Origin: Bdellovibrionota bacterium
GTDB lineage: Bacteria > Bdellovibrionota_C > UBA2361
Direction of reading: 5' to 3'
DNA length: 64,000 nt
Assembly: GCA_044352465.1 (NCBI GenBank)
Contig: JBILDU010000004.1
Coordinates: 427-64,426, forward strand
The notes beneath the pieces are model-generated. The model saw only the letters and a list, made by a program, of their open reading frames with translations. It had not been told where the DNA came from and did not search any database. Below are positions 25,423 to 27,279 of the stretch, piece after piece (within the stretch, counting starts at the first letter, position 1; every line of letters starts with the position of its first letter). The translations under genes and the position numbers were made by a program.

Positions 25423-27279
25423 CTAGGATCTCAGGAGCTGGAGCGCGATAGCCGGTTGTAGGTTCGCTTGAGCCAGAACCGCGGTAGCGGTGTTTTGAAC
25501 GATCTGGGTGCGGGTAAGCTCTGCAGCTTCACCGGCAAAATCAGTATCACGGATTCGCGAGTTCGCCGAGACAAACTCATCGCGTTGACTGAGGAGGGTG
25601 CGCGAGCCGGAGAGCAACCGTGATTGAGCTGCGCCGATAATTCCCCGCTGGGCCGAGAGAAGCTCGAGTTTCTTCGACACGATTGAGAGGGCTTCTTTAG
25701 AGTCGGCTTGGGTTTGCAGGGAGATCGGCAGCAGGGGTTGGATACCGTCCCGGGTAAGCGCTGAGAGAAGGAACACCTCGCTGGCTCCCCCCGCCACAAT
25801 ATCTGGCACGCCGTCCCCATTAAAGTCTGTAAAGGCAACGCCGAAGCTACCACTCCCGACGGGCAGAAAAGTGGGATCTTTAAATGTTCCGTTGCCCCTG
25901 CCCTCATTGAGCGTCACAAACCCGTCTCCAGTAGAGACTAGATCGAGTATCCCATCCCCATTGAAATCAGTGGTGTCGATCGATCCACCACCACTGAAAA
26001 GAGGCTTTGAGCTCGCGAAAGTCCCGTTTCCATTATTGAGTAATATCGAGGCCAACCCGTCAACATTATCGCTTACTGATGCGATATCTTGACGCCCGTC
26101 ACCATTAAAGTCTCCGACAACGACAGCAGCCGAGGATTGCCCTCCCACGGAGTATTCAACTTGGCCCTGAAATGTGCCGTTACCGTTTCCAAGGAGGACT
26201 GAGACGGTAGCGGATGCATCGAGGCCATTCCCGGTGACAATATCTGGAATACCGTCGTTATTGAAATCGGCGATGGCCACCGCACTCTGAGAAGCGCCAA
26301 CTCCAACCCCAAAAGTGGACTGACTCTTGAAGGTCCCGTTGCCATTACCAAGGAGAACCGAGATGGAGTCGCTGCCCCTGTTCGCAGCGACCAGATCTTG
26401 TATCCCGTCGCCGTTAAGGTCAGAGGCTGCTACCGCGCTCGGGGCATCTCCGACGACAAACGTGCTACCGCTCGCGAAAGTCCCATCGCCATTCCCCAAA
26501 AAAACGGCGACCGTATCGTCGCTACTATTCGCGGTAACAAGGTCGTGTTTCCCATCTCCGTTAAAGTCGGAAAGAGCGATAGACAGAGGATTATTCCCCA
26601 CAAGCATGGTTGCCTTGGTGGTGAACGCCCCCGATCCGTCCCCTAAAAGGACAGAGACGGTATCGTCGCTATTGTTGGCTGTAACGATATCTTGAATGCC
26701 ATCGCCATTTAAATCGGCTGTCGCGATCGCCCCGGGGGAATCTCCCACGGCGACACTGGCTAGAGCATTAAACTCTCCCGTCCCCAGCTTCCCGCCAACC
26801 GATGAATTGATCGCCCCCGCAGCTCCGTAACCCGCTTGGATCTGCAGCCCTTGAACGGTGCCGTCCAAAAGCCGCTGCCCGTTAAACGCAGTCGATTGGA
26901 CGATCCGCAAGAACTCATCCCGCAGACTCTGCGCCTCTTTATCAAGCGCGGCGCGTTGGCGGTTCGAATACGAGCCGTTCGCCCCTTGCTCGGCGAGCTC
27001 TTGGATTCGGGTCGTAAGCTGGATAAGGGTCTCAACTGCTGAATCGGCGATCGTGAGTGCGCTTAAGCCGTCGCTCACGTTCTGCGCACCACGGGTAAAG
27101 ACACGGGACTTTGCGGTGAGCGCATCGGCGATCGAAAGCCCCGCCGCATCATCGGACGCGCGGTTAATACGCTGCCCCGTGGAGAGGCGTTGATACACCT
27201 GCCCTATCCGGTCACTGGCTTGACCGAGGCTGCGCTGACTCTTCAGCGCATCGAGGTTACTTCCTATCCTCACCGTCAC
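25423..27279 (-). CDS. Flagellin-family protein with a central 7-repeat FG-GAP/VCBS (beta-propeller-like) insert
   Basis: Flagellin N-domain (SNLDALKSQRSL...RINRASDDAAGLSIA) and C-domain (LSAQRGIIGAAQSRL...AVLAQANLQPAIALQLL). Seven D[FL]N[GN]DG repeats lie between about aa 168 and 510. GTG start with a GGAGAG RBS. Confidence 0.8.
   Translation of the reverse strand: MTVRIGSNLDALKSQRSLGQASDRIGQVYQRLSTGQRINRASDDAAGLSIADALTAKSRVFTRGAQNVSDGLSALTIADSAVETLIQLTTRIQELAEQGANGSYSNRQRAALDKEAQSLRDEFLRIVQSTAFNGQRLLDGTVQGLQIQAGYGAAGAINSSVGGKLGTGEFNALASVAVGDSPGAIATADLNGDGIQDIVTANNSDDTVSVLLGDGSGAFTTKATMLVGNNPLSIALSDFNGDGKHDLVTANSSDDTVAVFLGNGDGTFASGSTFVVGDAPSAVAASDLNGDGIQDLVAANRGSDSISVLLGNGNGTFKSQSTFGVGVGASQSAVAIADFNNDGIPDIVTGNGLDASATVSVLLGNGNGTFQGQVEYSVGGQSSAAVVVGDFNGDGRQDIASVSDNVDGLASILLNNGNGTFASSKPLFSGGGSIDTTDFNGDGILDLVSTGDGFVTLNEGRGNGTFKDPTFLPVGSGSFGVAFTDFNGDGVPDIVAGGASEVFLLSALTRDGIQPLLPISLQTQADSKEALSIVSKKLELLSAQRGIIGAAQSRLLSGSRTLLSQRDEFVSANSRIRDTDFAGEAAELTRTQIVQNTATAVLAQANLQPAIALQLLRS

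Follow-up and report, generated by a model that had tools for sequence, protein, structure and literature searches.

No part of the flagellum is understood less well than the outer domains of flagellins; a demonstrated function exists for very few of them. Flagellinolysins and giant flagellins carry enzymatic or very large inserts in the variable region of the protein, and H-antigen variation in enteric flagellins classically takes the form of conserved ends around a replaced middle. A cell-surface flagellin homolog of Sphingomonas sp. A1 reportedly has a ligand-binding role. Fields et al. (2024; Nat Commun 15:9500, PMC11532411) grouped 16,948 AlphaFold models into 682 outer-domain clusters; among these are cluster #15 ('flagella_HEXXH') and some that may have been co-opted from proteins of the cell, namely the 'WD40-repeats' of cluster #55 and the peptidase-like and pectate-lyase-like clusters. 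In this study, a flagellin gene was analyzed on a 64,000-nucleotide (nt) stretch of DNA (hereafter the window; contig JBILDU010000004.1, assembly GCA_044352465.1) from a Bdellovibrionota bacterium. The middle of the encoded protein is predicted to form a seven-bladed FG-GAP beta-propeller, and comparison with its relatives indicates that this propeller is replaced by recombination between conserved flagellin ends.

The gene is complete and lies on the minus strand at 25423..27279, where the open reading frame (ORF) list and Pfam support a protein of 618 amino acids (aa) plus a stop codon, with a GTG start. The public gene call of the protein (P0001) has 591 aa. The first 27 residues, beginning with MTVRIGSNL, recur in conserved form in 25 homologs; between -21 and +38, the DNA matches that of a second locus (L086) with 100% identity; and a ribosome-binding site, GGAGA, read in the sequence at 27288..27292 (minus strand), lies 8 nt before the GTG and is the same at L086. 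Thus, 27279 is the correct position of the GTG start, and the 591-aa call is too short.

Both ends of the protein are those of a flagellin. The N-terminal D0/D1 part (residues 1-162; 26794..27279, minus strand) matched Flagellin_N (PF00669) at residues 7-141 with 107.3 bits against a cutoff of 26.6 (E 9e-31), and the C-terminal D1/D0 part (residues 516-618 and the stop codon; 25423..25734, minus strand) matched Flagellin_C (PF00700) at residues 532-616 with 52.6 bits against a cutoff of 23 (E 6e-14). AlphaFold2 predicted N-terminal helices at residues 7-33, 41-100 and 106-129, a D1 beta-hairpin at 145-159, and C-terminal helices at 524-607 and 609-617, the terminus reading ...AIALQLLRS. In a phmmer search of the PDB, the best matches of the protein were flagellar filament flagellins, and a Foldseek search with the helices led to the cryo-electron microscopy filaments 9au6, 9n59, 7sn4 and 8sug with E values of 1e-15 to 1e-13 (other filament structures up to 1e-10). 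The flagellin models of NCBIfam matched both ends with 130-167 bits.

Database names differ. Relatives of the protein are called 'FG-GAP-like repeat-containing protein' at NCBI (MEX2309834.1) and 'flagellin-like hook-associated protein FlgL' by the Joint Genome Institute (JGI), the latter being the generic COG1344 label, and the N-terminus matched the FlgL model TIGR02550 with 70.9 bits. A FlgL-like protein of the hook-filament junction is still highly improbable: the TIGR02550 score falls below the cutoff of 127.2 and concerns the N-terminus only, whereas the flagellin models cover both ends, Flagellin_C is passed, and all top PDB matches are flagellins. We hold with good confidence that the gene product is a real filament flagellin.

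In place of the D2/D3 domains, residues 163-515 (25735..26793, minus strand) make up the propeller, as judged from FG-GAP_3, AlphaFold2 and Foldseek. Pfam assigned seven stretches of the protein to FG-GAP_3 (PF13517; 196.6 bits, E 7.5e-59) and seven to FG-GAP (PF01839; 103 bits). The Ca-loop motif D-x-[DN]-x-D-G-x-x-D is present in all seven blades, and its Asp positions are invariant in 26 family sequences. The seven predicted Ca2+ loops, of the form D-x-N-x-D-G-x-x-D, together span 25801..26715 (minus strand) and were placed by motif scan, by conservation in 26 members and by the DNA repeat family D2. From blade 1 to blade 7, they lie at residues 189-197 (26689-26715), 238-246 (26542-26568), 287-295 (26395-26421), 338-346 (26242-26268), 390-398 (26086-26112), 438-446 (25942-25968) and 485-493 (25801-25827), all on the minus strand. 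The periodicity of the DNA repeat in the propeller is 141-156 nt, and 294 nt where the scan skipped the copy at residue 238.

Structure prediction agreed with the repeat pattern. The AlphaFold2 model of the whole protein, built with 26 family sequences, had a mean predicted local distance difference test score (pLDDT) of 85, a predicted template modeling score (pTM) of 0.77 and about 28 strands between residues 163 and 512; a model of the propeller only (residues 160-520) had a pLDDT of 92.0, a pTM of 0.90 and about 29 strands. These models predict with confidence that residues 163-515 fold as one closed seven-bladed propeller, with the D1 hairpin before it and the C-terminal D1 helix after it. 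The strand before blade 1 (GGKLGTGEF) carries the GxGxF motif that also follows each of blades 1-6; because of this shared motif, the first strand probably closes the ring and joins both ends of the insert. With its ends together, the propeller would occupy the place of D2/D3 in Salmonella FliC. At about 350 aa it is inside the size range of outer domains in solved filaments, which carry similar or larger ones, for example in the 793-aa Geovibrio flagellin 9au6. By rough filament geometry, a propeller about 45-50 Å wide would fit at a radius of at least 80 Å, comparable to Salmonella D2/D3.

The structures most similar to the propeller in Foldseek were the fungal lectins PVL, PAL and AAL2 (E about 1e-11, 22% identity, with TM-scores of only 0.5-0.6); other propeller matches were ITFG2 in KICSTOR, BBS proteins, UmbA4 and integrin alphaV. 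In sequence, its nearest solved relatives are UmbA4 (E 6e-11) and PVL (E 4e-7). The sequence-only reading had proposed canonical flagellin termini around seven FG-GAP repeats with a Ca-loop motif, had placed the repeats at about 25750-26778, and had expected a seven-bladed propeller between the D1 helices. Both Pfam hidden Markov models of the termini, the filament subunits among the best sequence and structure matches, the seven Pfam stretches and the seven motifs bear this out, the limits of 25735-26793 agree with its repeat region, and the AlphaFold2 monomer model contains the closed propeller. Its further suggestion, a distinct adhesive or ligand-binding surface displayed on the filament, is still a proposal, and the architecture is less unprecedented than it implied, given the 'WD40-repeat' cluster in PMC11532411 and dozens of metagenomic relatives.

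Cluster #55 is the closest described case. Like the window protein, it combines a D0/D1 core with a whole beta-propeller in the place of D2/D3, known from prediction only, so a beta-propeller on a flagellin is not a new category. FG-GAP, integrin and lectin are absent from the text of PMC11532411, which does not describe Ca loops, propeller saturation or recombination tracts either. A Bdellovibrionales metagenome-assembled genome (MAG; CAZTBW010000011.1, L066:371-2413) encodes a 680-aa flagellin with PD40 (WD40-like) repeats and no FG-GAP; this is a second, unrelated propeller type at the flagellin outer position, and cluster #55 may be of this PD40/WD40-like type. A full-text literature search for flagellin together with FG-GAP, VCBS or beta-propeller returned nothing relevant besides the 'WD40' remark. 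The FG-GAP/Ca-loop propeller on a flagellin and its spread in Bdellovibrionota-like MAGs appear undescribed, as does a propeller whose fold stays fixed while its sequence is saturated with change and replaced through recombination.

The locus can be compared with other known systems as well. Flagellinolysins and giant flagellins share with it an independently folding domain between ND1 and CD1, displayed thousands of times per filament; in contrast, the insert in the window protein consists of a repeat propeller and, at about 350 aa, is not unusually large, and a Pfam scan of the protein (E <= 0.1) found no peptidase family and no HEXXH. PVL, AAL2 and integrin alpha have the same seven-bladed FG-GAP fold with Ca-binding loops, but they are free-standing or membrane proteins and not filament subunits, and the likeness is one of fold and sequence only. 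UmbA4 (9oee), from the umbrella toxin particles of Streptomyces, is the closest solved sequence relative and has the conserved blade core and the Ca loops; it differs in having six blades instead of seven and in belonging to a secreted toxin particle, not a flagellum. In UmbA4, scaffold and Ca loops are conserved and the sugar-pocket positions diverge, the protein being diversified for species-specific surface glycopolymers (PMC13274773); a like pattern, with scaffold and Ca loops kept and other positions divergent, is found in the family of the window protein. Similar to the case of H-antigen variation in enterobacterial FliC, the family of the window protein has conserved termini and a center replaced through recombination between alleles or loci; unlike in FliC, the replaced region keeps its fold and blade number and diverges down to the floor of the repeat consensus. 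The Sphingomonas sp. A1 homolog (3k8v, 2zbi) is built on a flagellin scaffold and is among the matches of the window protein, but it lacks a propeller, and its role is not linked with any hypervariable insert.

The propeller differs sharply from the flagellin ends in how it varies. Across all relatives, identity to the window protein is 41-96% in ND0/ND1 and 42-98% in CD1/CD0, and it is flat at 40-49% in the propeller. Blades of the same index in two proteins are identical at a fraction of 0.37-0.42, blades of different index at 0.34-0.41, and blades inside the window protein at 36%. Since same-index blades are no more alike than different-index blades, the 40-49% identity of the propeller is a floor set by the repeat consensus. 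The invariant propeller columns are the Asp, Asn and Gly positions of the Ca loops and the G-x-G-x-F positions; no residue reaches a majority in the roughly eight positions that follow each F or in the loop behind 'TAN'. Mean column entropy is 1.22 in D0/D1, the best-conserved parts of the family, versus 1.62-1.65 in the propeller.

Two loci speak to the origin of this divergence. P0005 (GCA_041443045.1) stands at a syntenic locus, with a divergent phosphoribosyltransferase gene 459 nt upstream as in the window, and is identical to the window protein at 91% of the N-terminal part, 43% of the propeller and 98% of the C-terminal part. At L086, which encodes P0004 and is flanked by genes for an ABC ATPase and a trypsin-like protease instead of the window's neighbors, megablast, sliding-window identity and codon statistics delimited a shared 599-bp tract from -84 to +513 (26767..27363, minus strand) that includes the promoter, the 5' untranslated region and ND0/ND1. 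The tract is 92.8% identical; beyond it, the propeller retains 50-55% identity and the C-terminal part 70-80%, and the flanking DNA is unrelated. Synonymous differences among identical codons amount to 14% in the tract and 49-61% elsewhere. L086 resembles the window in composition (guanine-cytosine (GC) content 57.4% versus 57.7%; tetranucleotide r = 0.966, a value that two parts of the window also give when compared with each other). Its sample of origin, ERZ27272087, contains a contig that matches the window at 100% identity as well. Going by composition and co-occurrence only, we infer that the window gene and L086 are two paralogs of one genome, the alternative being close relatives that co-occur. 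The P0005 locus, the L086 tract with its codon pattern, and the composition and co-occurrence of L086 together show that the propeller diverged through replacement and not through slow drift. At the level of sequence, these comparisons show that recombination tracts end at the D1/propeller border and that the propeller has been replaced at an orthologous locus. A diversity-generating retroelement was considered as the source of variability and rejected, given that the window contains no reverse transcriptase and that the whole region is replaced with sharp breakpoints. The propeller is probably exposed on the filament as a variable coat.

The window comes from a metagenome assembly, in which an assembly chimera or a decaying pseudogene might imitate such a fusion. 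This is scarcely credible here: independent assemblies of several samples contain the same gene at 99.98-100% identity, its ORF is intact, and dozens of homologs with the same architecture and junctions span GC contents of 39-58%. By the first protein search, the family numbers at least 25 full-length proteins; they are about 590-645 aa long, have the three parts in the same arrangement and show 44-67% identity. Its members are metagenomic and mostly from uncultured Bdellovibrionota/Oligoflexia-like bacteria. The junction on the N-terminal side (QAGYG..G.I.SS.GG.LGTG.F) and that on the C-terminal side (TRDG..PLLPFSL.T.ADA) are both conserved across the family, which argues for a single origin of the flagellin-propeller fusion.

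Other searches extended this picture. Among the matches listed from GTDB species genomes, the full-length FG-GAP fusions are L002 and L003, both in Bdellovibrionota/Bdellovibrionales MAGs. When metagenome contigs were scanned with the window protein, 79 of the loci obtained were generic FG-GAP loci and only one, L088 (Ga0207108_1008), was a true fusion. L088 carries two FG-GAP-propeller flagellins in tandem (3861-5705 and 5971-7869; 614 and 632 aa), whose N-terminal motif is divergent, with DDPAAFSE replacing DDAAGLSI. In a family profile search of 1.84 billion representatives, the matches were swamped by giant multi-propeller FG-GAP proteins. A chimeric query of D0/D1 only listed none of the known fusion relatives; its nearest matches were ordinary minimal flagellins of 279-287 aa (43-48% identity) from Bdellovibrionota, Dadabacteria and 'delta' MAGs, and it also matched flagellins of 370-481 aa with other inserts. 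One of these, P0142 (481 aa), has a Laminin_G_3/ConA-like insert. Apart from P0142, the proteins P0138-P0144, P0154 and P0161 (422-476 aa) have degenerate inserts with one to three Ca-loop motifs. P0190 (370 aa, on a Logan contig of 4.5 kb) has an insert of exactly two canonical FG-GAP blades, about 100 aa. Two blades are too few for a closed propeller per subunit, and P0190 may be a deletion product or may form a propeller shared by neighboring subunits.

The window corresponds to about 40.9-104.9 kb of a 233-kb JGI contig. As for the host lineage, this contig also encodes, 10 kb upstream, a DNA polymerase I whose best named relatives (57-60% identity) come from MAGs labeled Candidatus Dadabacteria, Oligoflexia and Deltaproteobacteria. 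From these relatives, the fusion-bearing MAGs and the D0/D1 matches, the host is a deep-branching, uncultured bacterium of Bdellovibrionota/Oligoflexia-like affinity. Two family copies lie near mobile elements: in a 'Pirellulales' MAG (L084, JBBDWY010000073.1), TrwB/TrwC conjugation genes are found 3-9 kb from P0073 at a contig end, and in ERZ25039551 contig_21157 (L171) a tyrosine integrase is found 8 kb from P0082. These neighbors hint at horizontal transfer, or else at mis-binning of the sole non-Bdellovibrionota copy.

The following mechanism is proposed. The subunit would be exported unfolded through the flagellar type III channel, D0/D1 would polymerize under the cap, and the propeller would fold outside the cell and tile the filament surface. 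Low cytoplasmic Ca2+ might keep the insert export-competent and extracellular Ca2+ might drive its folding, as the seven predicted Ca loops suggest. The conserved coding ends for D0/D1 would act as homology arms through which propeller variants are exchanged between alleles and paralogs. The variable face would most likely be a diversified lectin or adhesin for cell-surface glycans, and it may also help to evade phages or grazers that target the flagellum. With the ligand-binding step set aside, we favor, though with some reserve, a filament flagellin that carries the propeller as its outer domain and swaps it as a variable coat. Such a family, strict in fold (seven blades, seven Ca loops) and free to change at exposed positions, offers a test case for whether a filament can serve as a display scaffold for diversified binders, and for whether a large beta-propeller can traverse the type III channel and then reach its fold at the tip of the filament, with Ca2+ as a possible trigger. 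The family may also provide an engineering template, namely a polymer displaying a loop-variable propeller, and an entry point into the surface biology of this uncultured lineage.

Binding of glycans or other ligands by the propeller is the weakest step and is put forward tentatively. A glycan-binding face is favored because the nearest solved relatives are lectins and because the sister flagellin P0142 has a ConA-like Laminin_G_3 insert. The same data fit a purely antigenic or structural coat equally. In that case, the protein would still be a filament flagellin, the propeller would stabilize or sheathe the filament without ligand binding, and its variability would serve escape from phages or grazers. 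The conserved ends with a replaced middle, the lack of conserved pocket residues beyond the scaffold, and the sheath-forming outer domains documented in PMC8931119 and PMC11532411 all suit such a coat; on the other hand, this propeller type has its nearest solved relatives among lectins, the same D0/D1 lineage carries other lectin-like inserts (Laminin_G_3/ConA-like in P0142), and diversified lectins share this pattern of conservation. We regard a coat without ligand binding as possible but somewhat unlikely. At the far end of the lectin reading, the flagellum would be a programmable multivalent lectin array, with a fixed seven-bladed, Ca-dependent scaffold displayed thousands of times per filament and a binding face swapped between alleles, paralogs and mobile elements by way of the D0/D1 coding ends as homology arms. 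This idea is speculative and unlikely as it stands; if it were true, Bdellovibrionota-like and possibly predatory cells could retarget filament adhesion to the glycans of other prey or substrates, and the two-blade, PD40 and ConA-like inserts would be other states of one system.

Several points weigh against a ligand-binding propeller on a flagellar filament. Across the 26 family sequences, no residue outside the scaffold is conserved, and there is thus no sign of one shared ligand pocket. Filament assembly of the window protein is something we infer, and its Ca2+ binding is a prediction from the motif. The cutoffs of the curated NCBIfam flagellin models were not reached, the best being NF006468 with 166.8 bits against 436; this shortfall is expected for an insert foreign to the models, since the two ends alone match. 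The window and its flanks, read for 10 kb upstream and 7 kb downstream, revealed no gene for hook, export, cap or chaperone proteins, no fliA and no other flagellar gene, in line with the sequence-only reading, which had noted none in the window; and no flagellar gene adjoins any relative's locus examined, lone genes being the rule. A sigma-28-like element, TAAA-N16-GCCGCTTT followed by ATTCGAG, lies at 27320..27347 (minus strand), within 1 nt of the 27319-27348 of the sequence-only reading, which had already called it weak; it scores 9/12 against TAAA-N15-GCCGATAA, a score reached by 21% of shuffles, and is weak alone.

The orphan gene also bears on whether there is a filament at all. A flagellin-derived surface or secreted receptor or lectin, with no motile filament, similar to the Sphingomonas sp. 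A1 homolog, would account for the absence of flagellar neighbors in about 91 kb around the gene as well as at the relatives' loci, for the presence of 3k8v ('bacterial cell-surface flagellin') among the structural and sequence matches, and for the family copies near integrase or conjugation genes. We consider this very unlikely: D0 and D1 are complete and the best conserved, which fits selection for export and polymerization, the closest D0/D1 relatives are ordinary minimal flagellins, and the relatives' flagellin genes likewise stand alone as a rule.

Further promoter observations concern the filament flagellin reading and its regulation. The conserved tract shared with L086 starts just upstream of the sigma-28-like element. 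A GCCG-N3-7-TTCGA box is found upstream of the window gene and of the family genes in L002, L084 and L087, and in L087 TAAAGTTT stands before it at the sigma-28 spacing; the chance of such a box is estimated at about 0.02 per 220-nt upstream region, for a pattern defined after it was sighted. Upstream of the 476-aa flagellin P0138, the closest relative that lacks a propeller, at L085:9870-9905, TTAAC-N15-GCCGATAA scores 11/12, which 6 of 2400 shuffles reached. This near-perfect L085 promoter indicates FliA-type control in the wider lineage, as read from the motif, and sigma-28 control of the window gene is plausible. No Rfam match was found around the flagellin gene.

The window neighbors of the flagellin are housekeeping genes, including those for Obg, iPGM, pyruvate dehydrogenase, enolase, Kup and Lnt. 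Beginning 88 nt past the flagellin stop and before a convergent cupin gene, a 172-bp unit is repeated 2.2 times with 96-98% identity (24963-25335); each unit contains a 21-nt inverted repeat, and a 35-nt fragment occurs again at 48884-48917. The stretch 24936-25422 (minus strand) has an RNA fold z-score of -2.9 and no Rfam match. About 1 kb past the 3' end of the flagellin gene, at 23285-24388 (minus strand), a 367-aa ORF has collagen triple-helix repeats (PF01391, E 5e-13); the public gene call takes in only the last 133 aa of this ORF. On the other side, the region 28260-31033 (about 2.8 kb) has no public gene calls on the identical contig, and its GC skew turns positive; its ORFs at 29552-30187 and 30236-30730 (minus strand) have no Pfam match, and the region has no Rfam match. 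At 15234-16439 (plus strand), a 401-aa protein contains six Ephrin_rec_like/TNFR-like cysteine-rich repeats (E 1.8e-36), which belong to a kind of domain more familiar from eukaryotic proteins.

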